Shown in pieces: positions 1 to 19,333 of a stretch of DNA of 64,000 nt. Under the pieces are notes generated by a model. The model was not told the DNA's origin. It ran no database searches and saw only the letters and a program-made list of their open reading frames with translations. The DNA lies in the NCBI GenBank assembly GCA_016781135.1, contig JADDQY010000126.1, positions 1,861-65,860 on the forward strand, written 5' to 3'. Source of the DNA: Actinomycetota bacterium. Its GTDB lineage: Bacteria; Actinomycetota; Acidimicrobiia; Acidimicrobiales; CADCSY01. Positions within the stretch are counted from its first letter, which is position 1; every line of letters begins with the position of its first letter. The position numbers and the translations under genes are program-made.

Positions 1-1
1 C

Positions 2-316
2 TCCACTCGTCGGCTCTCGGTCCGGATCTCGGCCGTCGCCGATCCGCCGCAGGCCGCCCTTGACCTGCTCGGCCACCGCCCCACGTCGCAGCGCGATCGC
101 CTCCGCTGGGACAGCGCCGTCGAGAACCTCGCCGTCTACCTCGACGAGCGCGGGCACGACTGGCCGGACCGAGCGGCGTCGCTACGCGACCTTCTCGGCG
201 AACGACCGAAGCAGATCCTCGACCGGTACGAGCACGATCGTGTTGCCAAGTCTGTGCAAGAAGCGATCAGTGCGCCCGGGAGAGACCTAAAACACGGTTT
301 GTCGCTCGGACGGTGA
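2..316 (+). CDS. C-terminal end of an unidentified protein (gene starts upstream of the window)
   Basis: Frame open from base 2 to TGA 314-316 with G/C-rich third codon positions. It is absent from the ORF track only because no start codon lies in the window. No motif recognised. Confidence 0.35.
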   Translation, partial: STRRLSVRISAVADPPQAALDLLGHRPTSQRDRLRWDSAVENLAVYLDERGHDWPDRAASLRDLLGERPKQILDRYEHDRVAKSVQEAISAPGRDLKHGLSLGR

Positions 317-328
317 TCCCGCGGGAGT

Positions 329-1093
329 TCACGCCGCAGGACCGGGCGGCGCCGCCCGGGTCGGTCCTGCCTCCGGGTCCGTCGGCTGCTGCAACAGCTC
401 AATCGTCGAGCCGTCGTCCAGGTGGAGCTGCACGGCTAGCGGATTCGCCGACGGGAAGGTCACCGCCGCGATGTGCTTGCCGACGACGGTCTCGATCTCG
501 AACCCGACGGTCACCGCGCGCAGTGAATCAAGCCGCGTCAACGCGTGACGAAGCTGAGCCCTCGCCGTTGCGCTGATCGAAGCGACGCGCACGATGTCGA
601 GACGGTCAAGCGTCACCCGGTACGTCAGGTCGACGACCGCTTCCGGAACGAGGCCATCCGCCGAGGCCGGAACCGGCAGGTAGCCGAGCATCTTCCCCGC
701 CATGAGGTTCCCACGATCTACGTCGAGGTCGTCGGGATGCAGCAGTGGGCTCGCCGTAAACGTGCGGTCAAGGCTCGCGTCCTCACTCGCCAGGCGCTCC
801 GCTTCGGCTTGGGGTACGCCCTGCTTGATCAGCTGGCTCCGGCGGCGGTTCCATTCCTTGTCGAAGTGGCAGTCGTGCGAAGTCACCATCACCAGCGCAG
901 GGCCGGCGGTGATGCGTAGGTCGGCGTGGTCGCCCGCAGGAGCGGTCACCGTGATGTCGTACGCGTCGAGTCGCGTCCACTGGGGTGGCGTGAATCGGTC
1001 GTCGGCTACGAGTCGGACAACACCAGCGAGCAGGATGTCGCCCTGCTGGGGCGGCCCGTCCGCAGGGACGTAAAAGGAGTCGGCGGGGATCAC
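329..1093 (-). CDS. Hypothetical protein, distal gene of a 3-gene operon (candidate effector)
   Basis: 254-aa ORF. Its GTG start overlaps the upstream stop (GTGA at 1090-1093). Conserved-looking block QQGDILL...VMVTSHDCHFDKEW. No family recognised. Confidence 0.6.
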   Translation of the reverse strand: MIPADSFYVPADGPPQQGDILLAGVVRLVADDRFTPPQWTRLDAYDITVTAPAGDHADLRITAGPALVMVTSHDCHFDKEWNRRRSQLIKQGVPQAEAERLASEDASLDRTFTASPLLHPDDLDVDRGNLMAGKMLGYLPVPASADGLVPEAVVDLTYRVTLDRLDIVRVASISATARAQLRHALTRLDSLRAVTVGFEIETVVGKHIAAVTFPSANPLAVQLHLDDGSTIELLQQPTDPEAGPTRAAPPGPAA

Positions 1094-1794
1094 CGGTAGC
1101 CCGGACGCCGGCGTTCGAGGTCGGGTTCCTCGAGCCTGTGCGCGTCGGTGGTGTCCATCTCATAGGTCGCGTCGGGCCGCGCTGTGGCAGCTCGAGGCGG
1201 AGCCGCCAGCTGACCAGCAGCGAGAGCGCGAACAGCGGCCGACCAGATGGGCTCGACTTGGTCGACGGCGCGCGGTCGAACGTCCACCCGGGCTCGAAGG
1301 CGTGCCACCCACGTCCGCCACGCCGTGGCGACCGCGTACCGGCCCGCACCGATCGAGTCGAGCAGCGTCGAATCGCCGCGTTGGCTCAGCACGATGTCGC
1401 GGACGTGACCAGGATGCTCCGCCTCGATCTCACGCGTGACGCGGGCAAGGATGCGGAGCGCCTCAATACGTTCGGGCTGCGGGTTGATCTCGCCGCTGGC
1501 ATAGCCCGACAATGAGCGCCGATCGACGCCAATCCCGCGCGCCACGTCCTGGCGGGTGAGGCCCCGCCGGCAGATATCGTCACGAAGCCGACGGACCTCA
1601 GCCACGATCTCCATCTCACGATGCTCGAACGCCGGGACCGTCGTGACGCCGAGGACGTGGTGGCGGAGGTACGCGCAGAGCGGAATGCCGGCGTTCGTGC
1701 CGAACACTGTCGTCGCCAGCAGCCCTGGCACGATCTCTACGTCGCTCGCGGCTCCGCACCGCAAGTACGAGGCCGGCGTGTCGACCATGCTCAT
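1090..1794 (-). CDS. XRE-type helix-turn-helix protein with uncharacterised N- and C-terminal extensions
   Basis: 234 aa. Central LTRQDVARGIGVDRRSLSGYASGEINP matches the XRE/Cro HTH pattern. ATGA overlap with the upstream gene at 1791-1794. Confidence 0.65.
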   Translation of the reverse strand: MSMVDTPASYLRCGAASDVEIVPGLLATTVFGTNAGIPLCAYLRHHVLGVTTVPAFEHREMEIVAEVRRLRDDICRRGLTRQDVARGIGVDRRSLSGYASGEINPQPERIEALRILARVTREIEAEHPGHVRDIVLSQRGDSTLLDSIGAGRYAVATAWRTWVARLRARVDVRPRAVDQVEPIWSAAVRALAAGQLAAPPRAATARPDATYEMDTTDAHRLEEPDLERRRPGYR

Positions 1795-2609
1795 GGCTGC
1801 CCTCCATACGCGACGAGGAACGAATCGTCAACGGCCCACCGGAAGAAGCGGTAGATCCGCTCACACGCGGACTCGGCCTTCGCCCCGAGTGCGACTGGCT
1901 CGAATGGCATGGGTTCCCCTGTGTAGGCGTCGAGATCGAGCACCCAGCTGCGCGACTTAACGGGAGCGATGGCGGGATCGAAGGTCGCCATCTCGGGGAG
2001 CACACCCCAGCGGCCGTGCAGTTCCAGGCCATCCGGTAGGTGGTAGGTCGTGTCGCTGAACGCGTGCACGAGGTCGGCACCGTCGCCTGCCGGTGTCCCG
2101 ACCGTGCCGAGCACCTCGGCGCGTAACAGCTCGGCGAGGCGACCGAGGAGTGCGGTGTCGGTAACGCGGTCGACGTACCTGATGCCGATCCGCTCGCAGA
2201 ACCGCACCCGCAGCTCTCGTTGGGCAGCCACGAGCAGCGCCGTCAGCCGGTCGAGGAAGTCCCGTCGACGCGTGTAGCGGGTGGTGGCGAGCGCCAAGAA
2301 GTCAGGCGCAAGCATGACCTGCCAGCCCTCTGGTCGTTCGTCGAACCGCCACAAGTGTCCCGACTCGGCCGTCGTGATCTGACCATCTGGCCCGACGAGG
2401 ATTCCGGCTTGTTGCTCACGTCGCATCACCGGATACACGCCGCGGATCGCCTCTTGGAACCCGGCGATGAAGTCCTCCGATCCGATCGACGCCACCCGCT
2501 CGAACCGCACCTGCGCGACCACGAACGCCAGCGGCGATCGGGGCAATGGCACCTCGGGCGCCGGCGGTCCAAACGGTGTCTCGATCACGCTTCCCACGAT
2601 ACTTCCCAT
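1791..2609 (-). CDS. TIGR04255-like uncharacterised protein (family assignment from memory)
   Basis: 272 aa. N-terminus ...PLPRSPLAFVVAQVRFERVASI...DFIAGFQEAIRGVYP resembles the N-terminal signature I recall for TIGR04255 family proteins. First gene of the operon, divergent from BREX. Confidence 0.45.
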   Translation of the reverse strand: MGSIVGSVIETPFGPPAPEVPLPRSPLAFVVAQVRFERVASIGSEDFIAGFQEAIRGVYPVMRREQQAGILVGPDGQITTAESGHLWRFDERPEGWQVMLAPDFLALATTRYTRRRDFLDRLTALLVAAQRELRVRFCERIGIRYVDRVTDTALLGRLAELLRAEVLGTVGTPAGDGADLVHAFSDTTYHLPDGLELHGRWGVLPEMATFDPAIAPVKSRSWVLDLDAYTGEPMPFEPVALGAKAESACERIYRFFRWAVDDSFLVAYGGQP

Positions 2610-2637
2610 CGGATGTCTTGGGAAGTCGCTTGAGAAG
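2590..2637. promoter_or_regulatory. Nested inverted-repeat operator candidate: CTTCCCA-N5-CTTCCCA-N10-TGGGAAG-N5-TGAGAAG
   Basis: Half-sites at 2590-2596, 2602-2608, 2619-2625 and 2631-2637, with 12-nt periodicity and symmetry about 2613/2614. The array straddles the ATG (2607-2609) of the TIGR04255-like gene in the divergent region shared with BREX. Confidence 0.5.
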
Positions 2638-2745
2638 TGTCATACCGTCTCTACACTGGGGACGACCTACGTCGTTCGACGTCGGCGTGGCAGAGACGAG
2701 GACAGTGGTCAGTTGGCCATGCTCTCGAGGTCGTGAGGCCTCCCC

Positions 2746-3279
2746 ATGACGGCGAGCGACTCGGCGCGCCTCGTGGTTGCCGTCGCGCGCCTGGGCGAGG
2801 CGGACCTCGCCGGCTGGTGGCGGTCGCATGGCCTTGACACGGTCGGCGAGTACGTGTTGCCGGACCTGTTCCCCCGAACGGCAACGGTTGTGGGGGCCGA
2901 GCTTGCCGTGCTGTCCGCGGCGAAGCGCCACGCCGACGCCTTGCCGGATCGCGACGACGTCCTCCACCTCTTCGGCGACCCACTTCCGGCCTTCGCAGAG
3001 GCGCTCGCGTGGTTGGCGGAGCTGAAGACAAGTGGCGAGACGAGCTTCCTCGACGAGCTCCGCGGCTGGTCGACGGCCGACGCCGCCCACGCCGAGGTCG
3101 GCGCCGCGACCGGGGAGGCGCCACCGGGCGAGCGGATCGGTACGACGCTGCGACTCGGCAAGGTGGCCGCAGCCGAGCTTGCCGATCCTGTCCGTGCCGC
3201 GGCGGTCGCGAAGTTCCTGGCTGCTGCGTACGCAGGTCAAGGTCGCGACCTCGCTGTCCCCTACTTCGATCTCGCATGA
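2746..3279 (+). CDS. Small protein translationally coupled to brxA (BrxE-like by position)
   Basis: 177 aa. Its stop overlaps the brxA start (ATGA at 3276-3279). It occupies the position brxE holds ahead of brxA in type 6 BREX. No catalytic motif seen. Confidence 0.5.
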   Translation: MTASDSARLVVAVARLGEADLAGWWRSHGLDTVGEYVLPDLFPRTATVVGAELAVLSAAKRHADALPDRDDVLHLFGDPLPAFAEALAWLAELKTSGETSFLDELRGWSTADAAHAEVGAATGEAPPGERIGTTLRLGKVAAAELADPVRAAAVAKFLAAAYAGQGRDLAVPYFDLA

Positions 3280-4040
3280 CGGCGCCGGCGTTTACCGTCA
3301 ACATCCAGAAGGGGGGCGCGTTGCTCCCCGACGCCCGCCGACTCGTGGAGGTCTGGGACGTGTCGGAGCCGGCTGAGGTGAACGTCCGGCGCGTCGCCGA
3401 CGAGAACCTGCTTGGCAAGACGACCAGGCGCCGCCTCGATGACGTCCTGTTGCGCTGCCTGGCGCCTCGTTTTGTCGAACCGGGACCTCACGTGGTCGCC
3501 GCGCTGAAGCGGCTGCTCCCCGATCACCGGGCCTTCATCGAGGCCGCCTACTACGAGACGAGCCGGGACGAGCGCTTGCTCGCTGCGTTTGCAGAGGGGC
3601 CGTGCTTCGCGTGGTACGACGCCGGGCGGTCCCGCGTGACGATCGACGACGCTACGTCATGGCTGGCGGAGCAAGCCGTCGCGGGCGTCTTGGCCGACTG
3701 GTCGCCGACGGTGCGGATCAAAGTCGGCCGCGGACTGCTGGCCGCACTGCGCGACTTCCAGGTTTTCGAAGGCGGCAAGCTCAAACGGTTCGCGCCGCCG
3801 CGGCTGTCCTTGCGTGGCTTCGCGTACGTCGCGTTCCGCCTCCACGAGCAGGGCGCGTCGTCGACGACCATCGCCACATCTCCTGTGTGGCGGCGTTGGC
3901 TCCTCGGCCGCGGGCGCGTCGACGACCTTCTGCACCAGGCTGCCTGCGCGGGACTCCTCACCTATGGCAGCGCCGGAACGGCGATCAGAATCGACTGGCA
4001 CGTCGCGACCGTCGAGGAGGCGATTCGTGCCGCTGCCTAG
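3276..4040 (+). CDS. brxA: BREX protein BrxA (DUF1819 family)
   Basis: The internal ATG at 3276 in the 3009..4040 frame gives 254 aa, MTAPAFTVNIQKGGALLPDARRL...ENLLGKTTRRRLDDVL. Call rests on DUF1819-like pattern and synteny. Confidence 0.75.
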   Translation: MTAPAFTVNIQKGGALLPDARRLVEVWDVSEPAEVNVRRVADENLLGKTTRRRLDDVLLRCLAPRFVEPGPHVVAALKRLLPDHRAFIEAAYYETSRDERLLAAFAEGPCFAWYDAGRSRVTIDDATSWLAEQAVAGVLADWSPTVRIKVGRGLLAALRDFQVFEGGKLKRFAPPRLSLRGFAYVAFRLHEQGASSTTIATSPVWRRWLLGRGRVDDLLHQAACAGLLTYGSAGTAIRIDWHVATVEEAIRAAA

Positions 4041-11569: not shown

Positions 11570-14073
11570 CCAGCCCGCTCCGCACCCGGCTCGCCGACCT
11601 GCTCGCCTCGGCCATCGACCGCCACCACCTGGTCGTGTGGCAGGACACACCGGGCGAGTACGGCGCTGTCGCCGACGCGGCGGTGCCGGCCGACGTGGCC
11701 TTCGCTCGCTACGACGGCAGCTGGTTCGAGCTCCGCCACCGCGTCGAGACGCAGCTCGCGCTGGCCGAGCCGCCACGGCTCGTGGTCTACGTCGGCGCCG
11801 GCCCGCCCCCCGCTGACCCGCTCGCTGAGTTGCGGGCAGCCGCCCACATCTTCGAGATGCCTCTCCGCACGCTCGTCAGGACGGCGCTCGACACCCATCT
11901 CGCCGCCACCCAGATCGACGCCATCGCCGACAGTGCGAAGACCTTCGGGGAGGCCGAGGCCGCCGCCGGCACCGGCGTCCCCCCCGGGGTCGTCTCGCTC
12001 GTGCCGATCCTCGGCGCCGGCCTCTCCGCCGTCGCCATGATCGTCGAGGTGCTCGGCGGCCGCCGGGACGCCGCAGTCGACGCGAAGGCCGCGTGGGGCG
12101 ACGTCCAGCGCCTCGTCGAGCGGACCTTAAACATCGCCACCGGCGACACCCACGACAAGCTGCGCGAGACCGTCGCACGCGTGTTGCTCCTCGACGCCGT
12201 CGACCGTGCGGGCGTGCTCCCGGAACGCCTCCACACCGCCCTCCCATCTGCCGACGACACCCAGCTGGCGGCCCGCGCGCAAGCCATCGGCGAGTGGTGG
12301 GCCCGGCATCCCGAGCAAGCTGCGGTCGCGTTCAGGGCCGCGGACGACAGCGCTGGTCTCGCCGAAGACATTCGCTGGGCCGACGACCTCGCCGCGGTCG
12401 ACGTCGCCGGGTCGATCGAATCGATCGCCGCCCGACGGGCGCTCGACCTGATCGCCGGCGGCGACAACGGCGCCGCGGAGGCGCTCGCCCTGCGGCGACT
12501 CGGTGGGCGGTGGACGCGGCTCGCCACCGTTGTCCCGGCGTCCGATGACGGCTGGGCCATGCGCTGGCGGGCGATCGTCGCTCTGGCGGAGCTACGCCAT
12601 GACATCGCTGCCCATGTGGTTGCGGCGGGAGCCGACAGCTCGGCGATGCTCACCTGGTACGCCAGCGATGGCTGGCGCGCCGACCGCGCCCACCGCCGGC
12701 TCGAGCTGGCCCTCACCGCTCTCGCCGAGCATGGTGAGCTCGAGCAACCCGTCGCCGAGGTCCGCGCCGCGTACGAGGACTGGCTCGCCGCGGTCATCGA
12801 GCGCTTCACCAACGCCGTCGACGCGGCCGGCTTCGCCACCGGGTCGCTGCTGCGGCAGTCAGAGATCTTCGCTCGTTACGTCAAGACCGGCGACCTCCCG
12901 ACCGCGTACATCTGGGTCGACGCATTCCGCTACGAGCTCGCCGTGGACGTCACCGAGTCCCTGCGCGCCGCCGGCAACGACGTGGAGCTAGTGCCCGCCA
13001 TCGCAGCGGCGCCCACGATCACACCGGTCGGCATGGCCAACTTGTGCCCCGGCTCAGACCAGGGCTTCTACATCGACGAGCACGGCGGCACGCTGACCGT
13101 CAACGTCGCCGGCACGATCGTTGCCAACGTCGACGACCGGCGGAAACTGCTCCGAGGCGCGCTCGGCGAGGTCGCCGACCTCGAGCTGGGCAAGTGCGTG
13201 CAGCTTGGCGAGCAGGCGCTACGCAAGGAGATCGAGGGCGCCAAAGCGGTCCTTGTCCGCTCCACCGAGTTCGACGTCCACGGCGAGTCCGGTCTCCTGA
13301 GCGCGGCGTGGACCGGCTTCGCCGACACACAGGGGACCCTGCCGCGGGTCGTCGCCAAGCTCGCCAAGGCCGGCGTCCGCAGGGTGGTCATCACCGCCGA
13401 CCACGGCTTCATCTCCCTCAGCCGCCGCCTCGGCGACGCCTACAAGATCGACGCTCCCAAGGGCGGTAGCGGCGACCTCCACCGCCGGGCGTGGATCGGC
13501 CGGGGCGGCGTCGACCATCCCTCGGTCGTCCGCGTGCCACTCGCCTCGACGGGCGTGTCGTCCGACCTCGACCTGCTCGTCCCCCGAGGGCTCGCCCTGT
13601 TCAAGGCGGGCGGCTCGAAGCAGTTCTTCCACGGCGGGCTGTCACCGCAGGAGCTGGTCGTGCCCGTCGTCGTCGCGGACCTCGCCGTGCCCGCCGACAC
13701 CGGCTCGGTCAAGGTCGACGTCGACGTCGTCGGTGGCGTGATCTCCACCGGCGTCTTCGCCGCGACGGTCTCTTTCAGCGGCAACCTCTTCACCGCCTCG
13801 GTCGTCGTCCGGGCCGTCGCCCGCCGCGGCAAGGACCTCGTCGTCGCCCATGTGGTCAGCGGCGACGGCTTCGATCCCGCATCCGGCACCGTCGAGGTCC
13901 CCGCGAGCAACGAGGTGCGCCTGGTGTTCCAGGTGACGAAGCGACTCGAGCCGAACGACCAGGTCGAGGTGCACGTGCTCGACGCCCGCACCGACGCCAT
14001 CCTGGGGAAGGCCTCCGTTTCGGTGGCTGCGCCCGTGTCGACCTTCGACGACGACCTCGAGGACGAGCGATGA
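11566..14073 (+). CDS. pglZ: BREX alkaline-phosphatase-fold protein PglZ
   Basis: The GTG at 11566 (GTGA overlap with the pglX stop) gives 835 aa. PglZ-type VVITADHGF block. Canonical position. Confidence 0.85.
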   Translation: MTSPLRTRLADLLASAIDRHHLVVWQDTPGEYGAVADAAVPADVAFARYDGSWFELRHRVETQLALAEPPRLVVYVGAGPPPADPLAELRAAAHIFEMPLRTLVRTALDTHLAATQIDAIADSAKTFGEAEAAAGTGVPPGVVSLVPILGAGLSAVAMIVEVLGGRRDAAVDAKAAWGDVQRLVERTLNIATGDTHDKLRETVARVLLLDAVDRAGVLPERLHTALPSADDTQLAARAQAIGEWWARHPEQAAVAFRAADDSAGLAEDIRWADDLAAVDVAGSIESIAARRALDLIAGGDNGAAEALALRRLGGRWTRLATVVPASDDGWAMRWRAIVALAELRHDIAAHVVAAGADSSAMLTWYASDGWRADRAHRRLELALTALAEHGELEQPVAEVRAAYEDWLAAVIERFTNAVDAAGFATGSLLRQSEIFARYVKTGDLPTAYIWVDAFRYELAVDVTESLRAAGNDVELVPAIAAAPTITPVGMANLCPGSDQGFYIDEHGGTLTVNVAGTIVANVDDRRKLLRGALGEVADLELGKCVQLGEQALRKEIEGAKAVLVRSTEFDVHGESGLLSAAWTGFADTQGTLPRVVAKLAKAGVRRVVITADHGFISLSRRLGDAYKIDAPKGGSGDLHRRAWIGRGGVDHPSVVRVPLASTGVSSDLDLLVPRGLALFKAGGSKQFFHGGLSPQELVVPVVVADLAVPADTGSVKVDVDVVGGVISTGVFAATVSFSGNLFTASVVVRAVARRGKDLVVAHVVSGDGFDPASGTVEVPASNEVRLVFQVTKRLEPNDQVEVHVLDARTDAILGKASVSVAAPVSTFDDDLEDER

Positions 14074-16091
14074 GCATCAAGATGGATCACCTCGACCGCC
14101 TGGCCAACGACGTCTTCCCCGGGCGCGTCGTCCGCAAGGACCTCGTGCGCCGCGTCAAGGTCGGCCACAACGTCCCGGTGCACGTGCTCGAGTTCCTCCT
14201 GGGCAAGTACTGCGCGTCCGACAACCCCGACGTGGTCGAGCAGGGCCTCGTCGTGGTCAACCAGACCCTGCAGGAGAACTTCATCCGCCCCGACGAGGCG
14301 GAGCTCGCCAAGGCGAAGGTGAAGTTCAAGGGGCAGCACCGGATCATCGACAAGGTCGAGGCTCGGCTCGCCGAAAACCGGTTCTGGGCCACGCTCAGCA
14401 ACTTCACCGACAAGTGGGTCCACATCCACGAGGACATCGTGAAGCGCTACGAACGCCTTCTGCAGGGCGGCGTGTGGTGCCAGATCGACCTTATCTACAA
14501 CGAGCTGGAGGACGAGAAGCCGCTCCGGCCCTTCTACATCAAGGCTCTGAAGCCGATCCAGGTTGCGGCGTTCGACATCGAGGACTACCTCGCCGGCCGC
14601 TCGCGCTTCTCGCGTGACGATTGGCTCGATCTCCTCGTCCGCTCCATCGGCCTGGAGGCGTCGCAGTACGACCTTCGCGCCAAGCTCGTCTCGCTGACAC
14701 GCCTGATCCCGATGGTCGAGCGCAACTACAACCTGATCGAGCTCGGCCCGTGGGGTACAGGCAAGTCGTTCGTGTACCGGGAGCAGTCACCAAACACCAT
14801 CCTCGTGTCGGGCGGCAAGGTCACCGTCCCGCAGCTGTTCGTCAACAACGCGACCGGACGCGTCGGCCTGCTCGGGATGTGGGATGTCGTCGCCTTCGAC
14901 GAGGTTGCCGGGCTCGAGCTCTCCGACACCACGGTTGTCCAGATGCTCAAGGACTACATGGAGGCGGGGTCGTTCGCTCGCGGCCGCGACGAGATCGTCG
15001 CCGAAGCCTCGACTGTGTTCGTCGGCAACACCACCCGACCGCACACCCAGCTGGTCCGCGACGCCCACCTCTTCGCCGACTTGCCGAAGGCGATGATCGA
15101 CCCGGCCTTCCTCGATCGCATGCACTTCTACCTTCCGGGGTGGGAAACGCCGAAGCTCGAGCCTCAGTTGTTCACCGACCACTACGGCTTCGTCTCGGAC
15201 TACCTCTCGGAGGCAATGCGGCAGCTGCGAAAGCGCACGTTCGTGAACGCGATCGACGCCGAGTTCGCTCTCGGCCCGCACCTGGCTCAGCGAGACGCGA
15301 AGGCCGTTCGCAAGACGGTTTCAGGTCTGCTCAAGCTGCTCCACCCTCACGGCGAGTGGACCCGCTCCGAGCTGCGTGAGTACCTCGAGTGGGCGATGGA
15401 AGGTCGCCGCCGTGTGAAGGAGCAGCTGAAGAAGCTCGCCGCGCACGACTTCTCGAAGACGGCCTTCACCTATGTCGAGGTCGATACGGGCCGCGAGTAC
15501 CCGGTCGAGGTGGCGGAGCAGCCGGAGGAGGATGTCGTCGCCGAGGCCCTCGAAGAGGAGCCGGCCGCGGGCGTGAGCGGCGGCGTTGACGCGGGGCCCG
15601 CGGTGCTGCCGACGGCCGAGTTGATCGCGGCTGGCGAGAGCCGCAACGTCGAGTTCAAGTCGACCGCTCGGTTGAACCTCCACACCAACCAGCGCGACCC
15701 CGCGATCGAGCTCGCCGTGGTCAAGACCGTCGCCGGGTTTCTCAACACTTACGGCGGCACGCTGGTGATCGGCGTGGCCGACGACGGCACCCTTCGGGGA
15801 CTGCACGACGACTACGTCACCGTGGGCAAAAAGGGCCGTGACGGGTACGAGAACTTCCTCACGACGCTGCTGGACACACGCGTCGGGCGAGCGGCCGTGG
15901 CGCACGTGAGCGTCAGCTTTGAGGCGGTCGACGGCCACGACGTCTGCCGGGTCGACGTGAAGCCCAGTCCCGAACCGGTCTTCGTGACGAACGACAAGGG
16001 CGACGCCGACCTCTACGTCCGTCTCAACAACAGCACCCGGCTGTTGAACACGTCGGACGCCTTGACGTACGTCCGGCAGCATTGGCGATAG
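14070..16091 (+). CDS. brxL: BrxL-type AAA ATPase with C-terminal AlbA_2 (Schlafen-like) domain
   Basis: The ATG at 14070 (ATGA overlap with the pglZ stop) gives 673 aa. BrxL-like N-terminus (FPGRVVRKDLV...VLEFLLGKYC), Walker A GPWGTGKS and Walker B VVAFDEV. An acidic linker is followed by ESRNVEFKS...VAGFLNTYGGTLVIGVADDG, which is AlbA_2-like. Confidence 0.8.
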   Translation: MSIKMDHLDRLANDVFPGRVVRKDLVRRVKVGHNVPVHVLEFLLGKYCASDNPDVVEQGLVVVNQTLQENFIRPDEAELAKAKVKFKGQHRIIDKVEARLAENRFWATLSNFTDKWVHIHEDIVKRYERLLQGGVWCQIDLIYNELEDEKPLRPFYIKALKPIQVAAFDIEDYLAGRSRFSRDDWLDLLVRSIGLEASQYDLRAKLVSLTRLIPMVERNYNLIELGPWGTGKSFVYREQSPNTILVSGGKVTVPQLFVNNATGRVGLLGMWDVVAFDEVAGLELSDTTVVQMLKDYMEAGSFARGRDEIVAEASTVFVGNTTRPHTQLVRDAHLFADLPKAMIDPAFLDRMHFYLPGWETPKLEPQLFTDHYGFVSDYLSEAMRQLRKRTFVNAIDAEFALGPHLAQRDAKAVRKTVSGLLKLLHPHGEWTRSELREYLEWAMEGRRRVKEQLKKLAAHDFSKTAFTYVEVDTGREYPVEVAEQPEEDVVAEALEEEPAAGVSGGVDAGPAVLPTAELIAAGESRNVEFKSTARLNLHTNQRDPAIELAVVKTVAGFLNTYGGTLVIGVADDGTLRGLHDDYVTVGKKGRDGYENFLTTLLDTRVGRAAVAHVSVSFEAVDGHDVCRVDVKPSPEPVFVTNDKGDADLYVRLNNSTRLLNTSDALTYVRQHWR

Positions 16092-16110: not shown

Positions 16111-17961
16111 ATGCCGGCGGTGAGCACGTTCGACAGCACCAAGACCGACCTGGTCGAGCTCCTTACGAGCGCTCGAACTGGTGAGGCGCAGCTGCCCGAT
16201 TTCCAGCGCGGGTGGGTTTGGGACGACGAGCACATCCGCGACCTGATCGCGAGCGTCTCCCGGTCGTTCCCGATCGGCACGGTGATGATGCTGGAGCACG
16301 GCGGCGAGGTGAGCTTCCGAACTCGCCCGCTCGAGGGCGCCACACCCGATTCCCGCACCCCCGAGCTGCTCGTCCTCGACGGTCAGCAGCGGCTCACGTC
16401 GCTGTTCCAGTCGCTCATGTCCGGCAAGCCGGTCGCGACCAAGGACGCCAAGGCGCTTCCTATCGAGCGGTGGTACTACCTCGACATCCGGAAGTGCCTC
16501 GACCCGAACATCGAACGTGAGGACGCCGTCTTCTCGATCCCGGCCGATCGAGTCCTGCGCACGAACTTCGGCCGGGACGTCGTGATCGACCTCAGCACGA
16601 GAAGCGATGAGTACGAGCAGTGCATGTTTCCGCTGAGCGAGGTGTTCGACCACTACGACTGGGCCTCGGGGTTCAGAGAGAGGCATGGATACGACCCCGA
16701 CGTCAGCCGGATGTGGGACAAGTTCGAGCGCGACGTCGTCCAGCGCTTCCGCTCGTACCAGCTACCGGTCATCCGGCTCCACAAGCAGACGCCGAAGGAG
16801 GCCGTCTGCCTCGTTTTCGAGAAGGTCAACACCGGCGGCGTGTCGCTGACCGTCTTCGAGTTGCTGACTGCCACCTTTGCCGCCGTTGCGCCACCGGACT
16901 TCGAGCTCCGCGGCGACTGGGAGGCGCGAGAGCGCCGTCTCCACCAACAGCGCGTGCTGCGCGACGTCGCAAACACCGACTTCTTGCAGGCGATCACGCT
17001 GATCGTCACACGAGAGCGGCAACAAGCAGCGCTAGCTGCCGGCGAAGAGGAGGACCGTGTCCCCGGCATCAGCTGCAAGCGCCGAGACATCCTCCGCCTG
17101 ACCTTCGACGACTACCAGCGGTGTGCCGATCCGGTCACGCAGGGCTTCGAGCGGGTCGCTCGCTTCCTGCACCGGGAGCGCATCTTCGAGACGAAGTACC
17201 TGCCCTACAGCACCCAGCTCGTTCCGCTGGCGGCGCTGCTCTCCGTCCTAGGCGATGACGGCTTGGAGAAGCCTGCGGTGCGGGACAAGCTGGCGCGCTG
17301 GTACTGGTGCGGCGTCTTCGGAGAGCTGTACGGCTCAGCGACCGAGACACGCTTCGCCCGTGACCTGCCGGAAGTGCTGCGTTGGATTGAGGATGACACC
17401 GCTGTCCCCCGGACGATCGTCGATGCGAACCTCACGCCAGAGCGTGTGGTAACGCTCCGCACCCGCAACAGCGCCGCCTACAAGGGCGTGTATGTGCTGC
17501 TCATCCGGGAGGGCGCTCGTGACTTCCGCACCGGCGAAACGGCGAACGACCAGAACTACTTCGAGGAAGCAGTCGACATCCATCACATCTTCCCGCAGAA
17601 GTGGTGCCGTGAGCGCAAGCCCGAACCGGTTTCCGCCGGGCTGTTCGACAGCATCGTGAACAAGACACCGTTGACAGCTCGCACCAATCGGATAATCGGC
17701 GGGCGAGCGCCGAGCGAGTATCTGAGGAGCCTGCGCGAGAACCACGGTGTGTCGAAGGCCGACGAGACGAAGAACCTCGAGTCGCACTTCATCGAGCCGG
17801 AGAACCTCCGCGCTGATGACTTCGAAGCGTTCTTCCGCGCCCGGCACCGGGAGCTCCTCGACCGAATCGGCGCAGTCATGAGGAAACAGCTCCTTGTCGA
17901 TCGGACGGAGACCGCGGCGAAACCGGTCTCGTACGAGGAGCTTGAGGGCACAGACGAGTGA
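16111..17961 (+). CDS. GmrSD-family type IV restriction enzyme (DUF262 + DUF1524), BrxU-like
   Basis: 616 aa. N-terminal LPDFQRGWVW and LVLDGQQRLTSL (DUF262). C-terminal DIHHIFPQKW...NKTPLTARTN (DUF1524 His-Me finger). Lies 19 nt after brxL with a GGAGGA Shine-Dalgarno. Confidence 0.85.
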   Translation: MPAVSTFDSTKTDLVELLTSARTGEAQLPDFQRGWVWDDEHIRDLIASVSRSFPIGTVMMLEHGGEVSFRTRPLEGATPDSRTPELLVLDGQQRLTSLFQSLMSGKPVATKDAKALPIERWYYLDIRKCLDPNIEREDAVFSIPADRVLRTNFGRDVVIDLSTRSDEYEQCMFPLSEVFDHYDWASGFRERHGYDPDVSRMWDKFERDVVQRFRSYQLPVIRLHKQTPKEAVCLVFEKVNTGGVSLTVFELLTATFAAVAPPDFELRGDWEARERRLHQQRVLRDVANTDFLQAITLIVTRERQQAALAAGEEEDRVPGISCKRRDILRLTFDDYQRCADPVTQGFERVARFLHRERIFETKYLPYSTQLVPLAALLSVLGDDGLEKPAVRDKLARWYWCGVFGELYGSATETRFARDLPEVLRWIEDDTAVPRTIVDANLTPERVVTLRTRNSAAYKGVYVLLIREGARDFRTGETANDQNYFEEAVDIHHIFPQKWCRERKPEPVSAGLFDSIVNKTPLTARTNRIIGGRAPSEYLRSLRENHGVSKADETKNLESHFIEPENLRADDFEAFFRARHRELLDRIGAVMRKQLLVDRTETAAKPVSYEELEGTDE

Positions 17962-17990
17962 CCCCGACGGCGATCACCCCGACGGCGATC
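17961..17990. repeat. Perfect 15-bp tandem direct repeat (ACCCCGACGGCGATC x2)
   Basis: Copies at 17961-17975 and 17976-17990. They fill the gap between the convergent GmrSD stop and integrase stop. Confidence 0.9.
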
Positions 17991-19236
17991 AATCGCTCAG
18001 GGGCGGGCACCGACGGAGCAGGGCACCGAGCGTGTCGGCCGCCCGTTCGTCGGCGGCCTGGAGGAACTGGGCGTAGAAGTCGAGCGTCGTCGAGGCGTTG
18101 GCGTGCCCGAGTCGACCGCTGACCGTGCGGATGTCGATGCCGGCCGTCAGGAGCTGCGTGGCGCTGAAGTGGCGAAGGTGGTGGAGCTTCACGCCCTCGA
18201 GCCCGAGCTCGTCACGGAGGCGGCCGAAGGCGAGGGTGGCGTAGTTCGGACGCCAGGGCTTCGAGAAGTCGACCTCGTGCGAGAACAGGAACGAGTTCGG
18301 CGAGAGCTTCGCTCCGCACTTCGTAGCCAGCTCCTCGCACGCCTGGCGGTGAGCGATGAGCAGGGCGGTCGTCTCTTCGTCGAGGGTGACCTTCCGGACC
18401 TGGTGCGTCTTGGTGTCCTTCTCGATGAGCTCGCCGCCAACCTCGACGATGCTGCGGGCGATCGTCACCCGGCGCTTGTCGAGGTCGACGTGCTTCCACC
18501 GCAGCGCGCAGAGCTCGGCGCGGCGGGCCCCCGTCGCTGCCGCCAACCGGAAGCAGGTCGGGAGCGACGGGTTGACCTTCGTCGCCGCCTCGATCAGCCG
18601 GGCGACGTCGGCGGGGTCGGGCAGCTCGAGGTACTGCTTCTTCGAGCGCGGCGGCGTGGCGTTGGCCGCCGGGTTCACCGTGAGCCACCCCCACTTCACG
18701 CCCTGGGCGAGCGCGCGCCGCAGCACGGCGTGGGCGCGCATCACCGTGTTCGGGGCGAGTGCGGTGCCGCCGGGGCCGCCCGACCGGCGAAGCTTTGAGT
18801 ACCACTGGTCGAGGTCCGCGGTACGGAGACGACGGAGGGGTACGTCGGCCCAGCGCGGGAGGATCCGCTTGTCGAGCAACCGGCGGTACTCGGCGGCGAC
18901 CGCCGGCGACAGGTCCGGCGCGGCGTGGGAGTACCAGCGCTCGCACAACTCGCCGACGGTTCCGGCTTGAACGGCGTGTTGGCCGTCTTCGATCTCGGCG
19001 AGCAGCCGGCCGAGGGCGACCTCGGCCTCTCGACGCTCGCCGCGGACGGTGCGTGTGACGTAGCGCTTCTTGCCCGTCTCGGCGTCCTTGCCGGCGAAGG
19101 CTCGGATCTCCCAGGACTGCTTCCCTCGCTGGCGGATCGACCCGGCCACGACCGCCACCGTACCGCGGTCGGATGGGCAAGAGTAGCGATTTGGATGGGC
19201 AACCGCCTCTCGGAACGGTTCAGCACCCGCAGACAC
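17989..19236 (-). CDS. Tyrosine recombinase / phage-type integrase
   Basis: 415 aa. C-terminal catalytic region HHLRHFSATQLLTAGIDIRTVSGRLGHANASTTLDFYAQF (R..H..R..Y pattern). Adjacent to the tRNA 3' end. Confidence 0.9.
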   Translation of the reverse strand: MSAGAEPFREAVAHPNRYSCPSDRGTVAVVAGSIRQRGKQSWEIRAFAGKDAETGKKRYVTRTVRGERREAEVALGRLLAEIEDGQHAVQAGTVGELCERWYSHAAPDLSPAVAAEYRRLLDKRILPRWADVPLRRLRTADLDQWYSKLRRSGGPGGTALAPNTVMRAHAVLRRALAQGVKWGWLTVNPAANATPPRSKKQYLELPDPADVARLIEAATKVNPSLPTCFRLAAATGARRAELCALRWKHVDLDKRRVTIARSIVEVGGELIEKDTKTHQVRKVTLDEETTALLIAHRQACEELATKCGAKLSPNSFLFSHEVDFSKPWRPNYATLAFGRLRDELGLEGVKLHHLRHFSATQLLTAGIDIRTVSGRLGHANASTTLDFYAQFLQAADERAADTLGALLRRCPPLSD

Positions 19237-19260
19237 CGCCCTTGACCTGCTACTTTGCGG

Positions 19261-19333
19261 CGCCCCCGGCAGGACTCGAACCTGCGACGCACGGTTTAGG
19301 AAACCGACGCTCTATCCTCTGAGCTACGGGGGC
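19261..19333 (-). tRNA. tRNA-Arg (anticodon CCT)
   Basis: Hand fold: acceptor GCCCCCG/CGGGGGC, D arm GCTC-AGAGGATA-GAGC, anticodon arm TCGGT-TTCCTAA-ACCGT, T arm GCAGG-TTCGAGT-CCTGC, discriminator G. CCA is not encoded. Confidence 0.85.

Follow-up and report, generated by a model that had tools for sequence, protein, structure and literature searches.

What do three tightly coupled genes that lie divergent from a bacteriophage exclusion (BREX) operon encode, and do they belong to it? The question is raised by contig JADDQY010000126.1 of an Actinomycetota bacterium, of which we analysed a stretch of 64,000 nt with high GC (~68-70%), here called the window. Near its left end lie three minus-strand genes, the triad, whose products we name P1 (TIGR04255 family), P2 (XRE-type helix-turn-helix, HTH) and P3. 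A first-pass annotation had proposed them as a candidate defence or toxin-antitoxin (TA) module. Our analysis supports this reading, and the module is still a candidate: the triad may be an autonomous, self-repressed, tripartite TA-like or abortive-infection cassette that is horizontally mobile as a unit, an interpretation to which we give about an even chance of being right.

We determined whether the genes form a unit by searching hidden Markov models (HMMs) of P1, P2 and P3 against six-frame open reading frames (ORFs) of 35 related loci, drawn from metagenomes and GTDB species representatives, all uncultured, and covering Acidimicrobiia, Mycobacteriales, Frankiaceae, Dormibacteraeota and Acidobacteria. 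The three genes co-occur. Wherever upstream DNA exists (~26 loci) they are found in the order P1-P2-P3 on one strand, two two-gene variants apart, and their sequences diverge together: across 26 loci the Mantel correlation of pairwise identities is 0.89 (P1-P3), 0.84 (P1-P2) and 0.75 (P2-P3), values that none of 2000 permutations reached. The chaining by 4-nt overlaps described at first pass is present in the sequence, both as ORFs and as the ATGA and GTGA junctions, and overlaps of the same kind recur in related loci. P1 is frameshifted in one locus (L033) and P3 truncated in another (L034); both look like decay. Searches of Pfam, NCBIfam, PADLOC and the PDB gave no confident homology to a housekeeping enzyme for any of the three proteins.

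The two-gene variants show which pair can be found without the third gene. In both (L022, 6044-7344; L026, 811-2156) an XRE-HTH gene of 168-174 aa overlaps the P3 gene or directly adjoins it, and both a TIGR04255 gene and the TGGGAAG operator described below are missing. Their layout is the classic one of antitoxin then toxin. Indeed, the gene layout of a type II TA system (adjacent, co-oriented and coupled genes, with the HTH gene 5' of P3) was found in all related loci as well as in L022 and L026. A Doc/Fic-like ORF (motif HALVDGNKR) is located just upstream of the variant in L026.

The triad also extends beyond this clade. A tblastn search of PLSDB with P1 identified TIGR04255 genes on nine plasmids, and all six of those inspected carry the triad: Chroococcidiopsis pCHRO.01 and plasmids of Kocuria rosea, Sinorhizobium americanum, Rhizobium etli, Sphingomonas paeninsulae and Paenarthrobacter ureafaciens. 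These add three further lineages, Cyanobacteria, Alphaproteobacteria and Micrococcales, so that the cassette spans Actinomycetota, Dormibacteraeota, Acidobacteria, Cyanobacteria and Alphaproteobacteria. The second plasmid gene encodes ~200 aa with the motif LTWDQLA..F.VSRR..H.WA.G, and the third encodes 260-330 aa with the pattern W.QGD ... (S/T)QTCD(I/V) ... vaPlv ... vvDLdr.ttv.k. At least 491 proteins belong to the third-gene family, every one annotated as hypothetical and without a Pfam domain; the family gave nothing significant in Pfam, NCBIfam or PADLOC, and its alignment (A5) has no PemK match in the Pfam scan. Comparison of profiles by hhalign nevertheless shows homology between it and the P3 family (probability 95%, E 2.5e-8, 77 columns), the two sharing the QGD strand and an invariant Cys at a strand-helix junction (SHDCH in P3, TQTCD on the plasmids). 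A tblastn search of the plasmids with P3 found no match; these remote homologues are found only by profiles. The remote plasmid triads have no PADLOC match. In three of the plasmids the middle HTH gene is missing from the PLSDB tables yet present as an intact ORF (Kocuria L037, 5795-6412; Sphingomonas L040, 4803-5393; Paenarthrobacter L041, 4798-5397), and in Kocuria the third gene, as annotated, lacks part of its N-terminus. A phage-borne origin was considered and rejected, since P3 relatives are missing from INPHARED and IMG/VR; P1 has three marginal half-length matches there.

We next consider P3, the protein for which a toxin function had been guessed. The best AlphaFold2 model (pLDDT 81.8) comprises a barrel core (~15-192) into which two helices (75-104) are inserted, followed by a small beta domain at the C-terminus (200-234). 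In a Foldseek search of the PDB the top 50 matches are all MazF, PemK, MoxT or EndoA (probability 0.92-1.0, TMt 0.54-0.69, best E 4e-3), in agreement with the guess, and we assign P3 a MazF/CcdB SH3-like barrel fold with moderate confidence. Sequence profiles point the same way. The best PDB match of the P3 family profile is S. aureus MazF (E 0.43), and it is colinear, pairing the GDI strand and aligning DLtyrxTvDr with LEQIRTLDKKRL. PemK_toxin is moreover the sole Pfam family matched by more than one of 48 diverse P3 members (3/48, best E 3.9e-4). By sequence, P3 is not a member of the PemK family (PF02452), and a search of the PDB with its sequence gave nothing at E up to 10.

The P3 family has a conserved pattern of its own. 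P3 carries QQGDILL (residues 16-22) and VTSHDCHFDKEW (residues 70-81), a block picked out at first pass as conserved-looking, and its conservation was borne out among 40 close homologues, in which S72, H73, D74, C75, H76, D78, K79, W81 and N82 do not vary. Across the diverse family Q17, G18, D19, C75, L108 and R192 are invariant and H73 and D109 nearly so. The family is rare, with 206 clusters at 90% identity and 176 members among 1.84 billion 50% cluster representatives (exhaustive profile search), all about 250-300 aa long. Cys75 was also considered as part of a C-X5-R loop of the protein tyrosine phosphatase type; the spacing is wrong.

P2 has the central XRE HTH that had been described, within residues 64-113 (Pfam HTH_3, 31.1 bits against a cut-off of 23, residues 70-113; HTH_31, 28.9 bits against 27). 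Its flanks, given as about 80 and 100 aa, measure ~63 and 115 aa. Below threshold, the NCBIfam search relates P2 to HTHs of antitoxins, MqsA among them, and to the phage repressor RstR. A variable N-terminus, the HTH (~64-120), a ~45-residue middle domain and a conserved C-terminal tail make up the protein. In the P2 alignment the tail, PLY..A..AL..GR...RP..YE.D..A..F.EP...RRR, recurs in the HTH proteins of the two-gene variants; the middle domain is confined to proteins with a P1 partner. From this distribution we suggest P3 as the contact of the tail and P1 as that of the middle domain. Sequence change is fastest in P2 (mean identity 43% vs 53% for P1 and 56% for P3); antitoxins are usually the fastest-evolving member of their modules.

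The DNA at the start of the operon is conserved to a degree that the proteins are not. A palindromic motif with four half-sites, ACTTCYCA-N4-ACTTCCCA-N10-TGGGAAGT-N4-TGGGAA, lies at the gene 1 start and is here called the operator (Table 1). An ungapped stack of 26 distinct loci gave the consensus acTTCcCat.ctaCTTCCCat-(10 nt)-TGGGAAGTA..aTGGGAAgc-ATG/GTG, with high information content confined to the four 8-nt half-sites, and this DNA is kept across loci whose proteins share only ~45-65% identity. All 59 matches with up to three mismatches in the 641 kb of fetched loci are at or just 5' of gene 1 starts; the window has two matches, against 0.42 expected by chance. The inverted repeat at the gene 1 start was also detected independently. 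Since the operator abuts the gene 1 start in the 26 loci whichever gene is the neighbour, the control region that the first-pass annotation had described as shared with BREX is better described otherwise: the 136-bp gap to the next plus-strand gene (ATG at 2746) stands, and the operator within it is the triad's own and moves with the triad.

A promoter appears to be buried in this operator. A TANNNT hexamer occurs between the two right half-sites in every stacked locus, with the start codon 1-3 nt past the motif. Under the rules for actinobacterial promoters, a start directly after the -10 element reads as a leaderless mRNA. In the window the predicted -10 hexamer is only 7 nt from GTG 2588, which implies that the operon mRNA is leaderless and that occupancy of the operator would block both the -35 and the -10 element. 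Repeats of a related kind are present in the remote plasmid triads: TGTGAAGTAgaGTGTGAA immediately precedes the Kocuria start, a copy of this motif stands 22 nt ahead of the Paenarthrobacter start, and other plasmids have TTCACA or TTTCAC repeats; these parallel the conserved (V/D)(S/D)RR(S/A)(L/V) recognition-helix region of P2.

In the opposite direction, TTGAGA-16-TACACT at 2630-2657 (plus strand), pointing toward brxE, is the only sigma-70-like promoter match in positions 1-3300, by consensus match only. Its -35 element overlaps the outer operator half-site. An occupied triad operator could also affect BREX transcription in this island. Within the same interval an Rfam scan found no match, so that an RNA component hidden there, for instance a type III antitoxin, has no support, and the sole match of a terminator scan, at chance level and inside the gene 2/3 junction, was disregarded.

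The operator also bears on the gene 1 start. Because the start codon is 1-3 nt past the operator in 26 loci, the true start of P1 is probably GTG 2588-2586, 21 nt inside ATG 2609, giving a protein of 265 aa (1791-2588); this agrees with homologues that begin MIETPFGPP. TIGR04255 gene calls of 317-383 aa in other loci (L002, 8143-9294, and L003, 1259-2410, both within 359-383 aa; L038, 4818-5771) look over-extended at the 5' end, since counting from the start codon behind the operator gives ~265 aa instead.

P1 had been said to resemble TIGR04255, and it is more than a resemblance: the protein is a full member, scoring 109.4 bits where the curated cut-off is 30 (E 2.6e-31) and spanning positions 2-248 of the 252 in the profile, with 108-126 bits for the first genes of loci L001, L002, L003 and L004. 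Neither Pfam nor PADLOC gave a match for P1, and a sequence search of the PDB gave none at E up to 10. Its AlphaFold2 model (pLDDT 88.2, pTM 0.85) is a duplicated strand-helix-four strands-helix unit (beta-alpha-beta4-alpha; S1-H1-S2-S5-H2) with the pseudo-dimer topology of a TATA-box binding protein (TBP). Foldseek against BFVD gave nine matches at E<1e-3, among them a giant-virus TATA-box binding protein and poxvirus-type VETF-L. Against the PDB it gave matches at TM <0.3 only (AdoMetDC, Med18/20, PYL), which are uninterpretable beyond a two-layer beta/alpha repeat. The strands carry many invariant Arg, Asp and Glu residues (R35, E53, R56, R140, R144, R148, D225, D227 and others).

The surroundings of the triad are those of a defence island, as had been proposed. 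In the window the BREX genes follow the order BrxE-family, BrxA, BrxB, BrxC, PglX methyltransferase, PglZ and BrxL, succeeded by GmrSD and a tyrosine integrase beside tRNA-Arg; the triad thus lies in an island with type 1 BREX that has inserted at a tRNA gene, and the island of BREX and integrase genes reported at first pass is real. We compared 13 neighbourhoods with Pfam-annotated neighbours within 10 kb. Besides the window (BREX-1, GmrSD, integrase) they hold BREX divergent as in the window with TrwC, AlbA_2 and CBASS (L048); PglY, PglZ, BrxD and BrxHI of type 2 BREX (L002); BrxD with a helicase, TrwC, AAA_15/21 and PD-(D/E)XK (L006); an integrase, TrwC and SIR2 with a HerA-like protein (L008); SIR2_2 and an OLD-like ATPase (L042); GmrSD and HsdMSR (L043); an MmeI-type methylase, a helicase, DUF1998/MZB and PLD, DISARM-like (L044); a Phd/YefM-PIN pair (L045); an integrase, an excisionase-like HTH, two methyltransferases and an insertion sequence (L047); an rve transposase (L046); a variable region with a transposase (L001); and housekeeping genes near smpB (L004). 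Recognised defence systems (BREX, DISARM, type I restriction-modification (R-M), SIR2, OLD-like, GmrSD) occur in 8 of the 13, and defence, TA or mobility genes in 11; what accompanies the triad in the remainder is mostly integrases, relaxases, insertion sequences and a TA pair. BREX genes are present in four neighbourhoods (window, L048, L002, L006) and in none of the other nine, so that the link to BREX is frequent and not obligatory, and the triad is not a fixed component of BREX. On the plasmids it adjoins integrases, relaxases, a type IV secretion system (T4SS) coupling protein, an MT-A70 methylase and a Fic protein.

Several features of the island are worth recording in their own right (Table 1). 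The BrxE-family gene opens the BREX operon, 5' of BrxA, in an otherwise type 1-looking BREX. BrxL is a fusion in which the Schlafen/AlbA_2 domain occupies residues 716-852 of the 866-aa ORF translation. The right copy of CCGCCCTTGACCTGCT is between the integrase start and the 3' end of tRNA-Arg(CCT) and the left copy near the left end of the window, inside the ORF that runs off it; similarity between the copies stops at 16 bp. The pair may mark the att sites of a ~19.2-kb island comprising triad, BREX, GmrSD and integrase.

Table 1. Features of the triad and its island in the window (positions count from the first letter of the window; operator and promoter are predictions).
Feature	Position	Strand	Details
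Gene 1 (P1), TIGR04255 family	1791-2609	minus	longest ORF, ATG, 272 aa
Gene 2 (P2), XRE-type HTH	1090-1794	minus	ORF, ATG, 234 aa
Gene 3 (P3), predicted MazF/PemK-like fold	329-1093	minus	ORF, GTG, 254 aa
Gene 1 stop/gene 2 start overlap, ATGA	1791-1794	minus	plus strand reads tcat
Gene 2 stop/gene 3 start overlap, GTGA	1090-1093	minus	plus strand reads tcac; translational coupling
Four-half-site palindromic operator	2591-2638	minus	left pair ACTTCTCA-AGCG-ACTTCCCA 2638-2619; spacer 2618-2609 (10 nt); right pair TGGGAAGT-ATCG-TGGGAA 2608-2591
Promoter inside operator	2596-2624	minus	-35 TTCCCA 2624-2619; 17-nt spacer; -10 TATCGT 2601-2596; 7 nt to GTG 2588; predicted from sequence
BrxE-family protein	2746-3279	plus	177 aa; NF033447, 80 bits; weaker match to BREX-6 BrxE model
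BrxL	about 14070-16091		BrxL_N, Lon-like ATPase domain and C-terminal Schlafen/AlbA_2
GmrSD-type (BrxU-like) type IV restriction enzyme	16111-17961		directly after brxL, before integrase
Tyrosine integrase	17989-19236		adjoins tRNA-Arg(CCT)
tRNA-Arg(CCT)	19259-19333
Exact 16-bp direct repeat CCGCCCTTGACCTGCT	54-69 and 19236-19251
ORF running off the left end of the window	2-316	plus	104 aa in window, no Pfam match; just 3' of gene 3 stop

How might such a cassette work? Our data show the gene structure, family memberships, similarity of fold, synteny, co-divergence, conservation of the operator and genomic context; in the following scheme we infer the operator binder, the toxic protein, the contacts between the proteins, the trigger and the target. 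The triad would move as a unit and lodge in defence islands, integrative elements and conjugative plasmids. Its leaderless mRNA would be made from the promoter buried in the four-half-site operator. P2, proposed as the operator binder because it is the only protein with a classical DNA-binding domain, would bind there as a dimer of dimers and repress the operon. Type II TA operons are autoregulated, with the operator at their own promoter or start, and an operator placed exactly at the promoter and start in 26 loci fits such an operon. The C-terminal tail of P2 would keep inactive P3, a putative growth-arresting effector that would use the MazF/CcdB scaffold with its own Cys-centred site. P1 may dock on the middle domain of P2 as an accessory sensor or as a substrate-binding or recruiting subunit, comparable to the TBP-like domains of RnlA. 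Phage infection, loss of the element or shut-off of transcription would then deplete or displace P2, and freed P3 would arrest growth, resulting in abortive infection or post-segregational killing. Two published cases lend plausibility to such an architecture. The anti-phage TA toxin RnlA has two tandem TBP-like domains that assist binding of the RNA substrate (PMC8266594), and GajC of type II Gabija is a defence effector with a MazF-like domain split by an alpha-helical insertion (PMC13069673).

A number of observations weigh against this reading, most of them concerning P3. The protein has no match in Pfam (E up to 1) or NCBIfam, its five AlphaFold2 models spread over pLDDT 48-82, and the statistics of the MazF fold match are modest, at the best E quoted above. 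Aligning the P3 families by hhalign with a small alignment of five MazF sequences gave E 0.026, which is not significant, the stretch being colinear for the diverse P3 alignment (A3). With 254 aa P3 is more than twice the typical length of MazF. P3 lacks the MazF pairing of a catalytic Arg (in an RP motif ahead of strand 3) with a Thr/Ser for cleaving RNA: the Arg is not conserved, the corresponding segment reading AGPALVMV here and relatives showing G, R, W, Y or F at this position by manual or HMM alignment. Hence RNA cleavage of the MazF type cannot be assumed for P3. The TBP-like assignment of P1 comes from model topology and weak matches (PDB TM <0.3). As to context, the count of 8 of 13 defence neighbourhoods is from a small sample with no matched background, and enrichment is indicative only. 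TA modules in general are enriched in defence islands, and for this reason context cannot separate a role in defence from one in addiction.

Other explanations account for parts of the same evidence. An HTH protein with a strongly conserved operator, often adjoined by integrases, excisionase-like HTH_17, TrwC relaxases and T4SS coupling proteins, could also be a non-toxic regulatory cassette of mobile elements, ImmR- or BrxR-like, in which P2 is the repressor and P1 and P3 are co-regulators or anti-repressors of excision, transfer or cargo; regulators of the WYL/BrxR type do sit beside diverse defence systems. We judge this unlikely. The operator occurs only at the triad's own start, with no second copy in the 641 kb and no sign of a wider regulon; the position and orientation of the triad relative to its neighbours vary (divergent, downstream on the same strand, or with unrelated genes between); several contexts lack a mobility gene within 10 kb; and the fold of P3 matches toxins, not regulators. 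A more local version holds that the triad is a dedicated BREX accessory or regulator, P2 co-controlling brxE-brxL via the shared divergent promoter region. The triad is indeed divergent from brxE in the window and in L048, it is beside type 2 BREX genes in L002 and L006, and the promoter-like consensus site toward brxE overlaps the outer operator half-site. We nonetheless regard this reading as highly improbable, given that in L002 and L006 the triad is downstream of BREX and not at its promoter, that the operator abuts gene 1 always, with any neighbour, that the nine contexts lacking BREX offer DISARM, type I R-M, SIR2, OLD-like, VapBC or housekeeping genes instead, and that the triad is also on plasmids of other phyla.

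The roles within the triad could also be reversed, with P1 the enzymatic effector or toxin and P3 an adaptor, immunity protein or sensor with an SH3-like barrel. P1 has the most invariant charged sheet residues, resembling an active or ligand-binding site, it is as well conserved as P3, and TIGR04255, with 648 hits, outnumbers the close P3 family, with 206. The two-gene variants speak against this, for they retain the HTH and P3 and drop P1, so that a P2-P3 pair can stand alone, whereas no natural P1-P2 pair lacking P3 was seen among the related loci, L034 and L033 looking like decay. The HTH gene immediately 5' of P3 fits antitoxin then toxin, and the PDB search with P1 gave no enzyme fold above TM 0.3. 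Reversed roles accordingly seem to us quite improbable. A bolder reading is that the triad guards methylation-based immunity, as an 'anti-anti-restriction' system: P1 would use its TBP-like DNA-binding saddle to sense DNA mimics or aberrant phage nucleic acid and pull P2 off P3 and the operator, freeing an effector of MazF fold with a new Cys-based chemistry. Of the 13 contexts, 7 have the triad beside BREX (4), DISARM (1), type I R-M (1) or orphan methyltransferases (1), and BREX, DISARM, R-M and methyltransferase systems are targets of phage DNA-mimic inhibitors such as Ocr. The logic would be like that of PrrC/EcoprrI or PARIS, with entirely different parts. This idea, too, has only a slim chance of being correct; if true, it would give the cross-phylum TIGR04255 family its first function.

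No function is assigned to the curated TIGR04255 family, whose distribution has been called sporadic. In the loci with the triad and on the six inspected plasmids it acquires a first fixed genetic context, as the first gene of a putative mobile, self-regulated cassette in which it is joined by a putative XRE repressor and a divergent protein of predicted MazF fold with an unprecedented invariant Cys. If the cassette is a defence or addiction module, it represents a new tripartite architecture and probably new chemistry on a MazF/CcdB scaffold. The operator and its leaderless promoter constitute a testable regulatory model, and the operator is in addition a DNA signature with which to find the cassette in unannotated metagenomes and to correct over-extended gene calls.

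Finally, we compared the triad with known systems. A full-text literature search found no paper on TIGR04255 (IPR026349, CHP04255) or on this gene combination, and PADLOC-DB v2.0.0 gave no match for P1, a chance-level one for P3 (E 0.044) and generic HTH matches to RmrA for P2. A close parallel to P3 is in MazEF and PemIK (Kid-Kis), which share with the triad the predicted SH3-like barrel, a coupled partner gene immediately upstream, a palindromic operator at the promoter, and colinear motifs (GDI in strand 1, a hydrophobic strand like RPxxVl, and DLtyrxTvDr vs LEQIRTIDK). The differences are equally clear. MazF has ~110 aa, and P3 adds a helical insert and an extra C-terminal domain, fails Pfam PemK_toxin, does not conserve the catalytic Arg and has a family-wide invariant Cys of its own (SHDCH; TQTCD in remote relatives). 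Its partner is a 234-aa XRE-HTH protein and not an AbrB or ribbon-helix-helix MazE, and a TIGR04255 gene leads the operon. P2 and its remote relatives weakly match the Xre-like antitoxin HTH, Xre_ParS and MqsA, recalling Xre-RES, MbcTA/ParST and MqsRA, in which an HTH is likewise followed by a toxin-binding C-terminal part; these matches are far below the curated cut-offs, and the partner toxin is neither RES nor MqsR.

Tripartite TA systems (TAC HigBA-SecB, HipBST, PaaR-PaaA-ParE) resemble the triad in having three co-transcribed genes, the third of which modulates a TA pair, and HTH autoregulation. In a TAC the third gene encodes a SecB-like chaperone, which P1 is not: it has no Pfam match, a tandem beta-alpha-beta4-alpha model and viral fold matches of TBP type. 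Nor is it a kinase fragment or a second regulator, and TIGR04255 has no assigned role in described TA systems. RnlAB and LsoAB are comparable in that RnlA carries tandem TBP-like domains, which help its nuclease domain to bind RNA, and the triad encodes a tandem TBP-like protein together with a putative nuclease-fold protein and a putative inhibitor. In RnlA, however, the TBP-like domains are fused to a HEPN RNase, whereas the triad has a separate P1, a predicted MazF-like effector fold and no HEPN domain; RnlB lacks an HTH, and P1 has no sequence or significant fold match to RnlA. Gabija GajC, compared by description, is similar in its defence MazF-like domain with a helical insertion, as in the P3 insert, and differs in working with GajB, a UvrD-type helicase, whereas the triad encodes no helicase. 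Set beside these systems, the cassette is a computational candidate for a previously undescribed tripartite architecture, distributed across at least five phyla.

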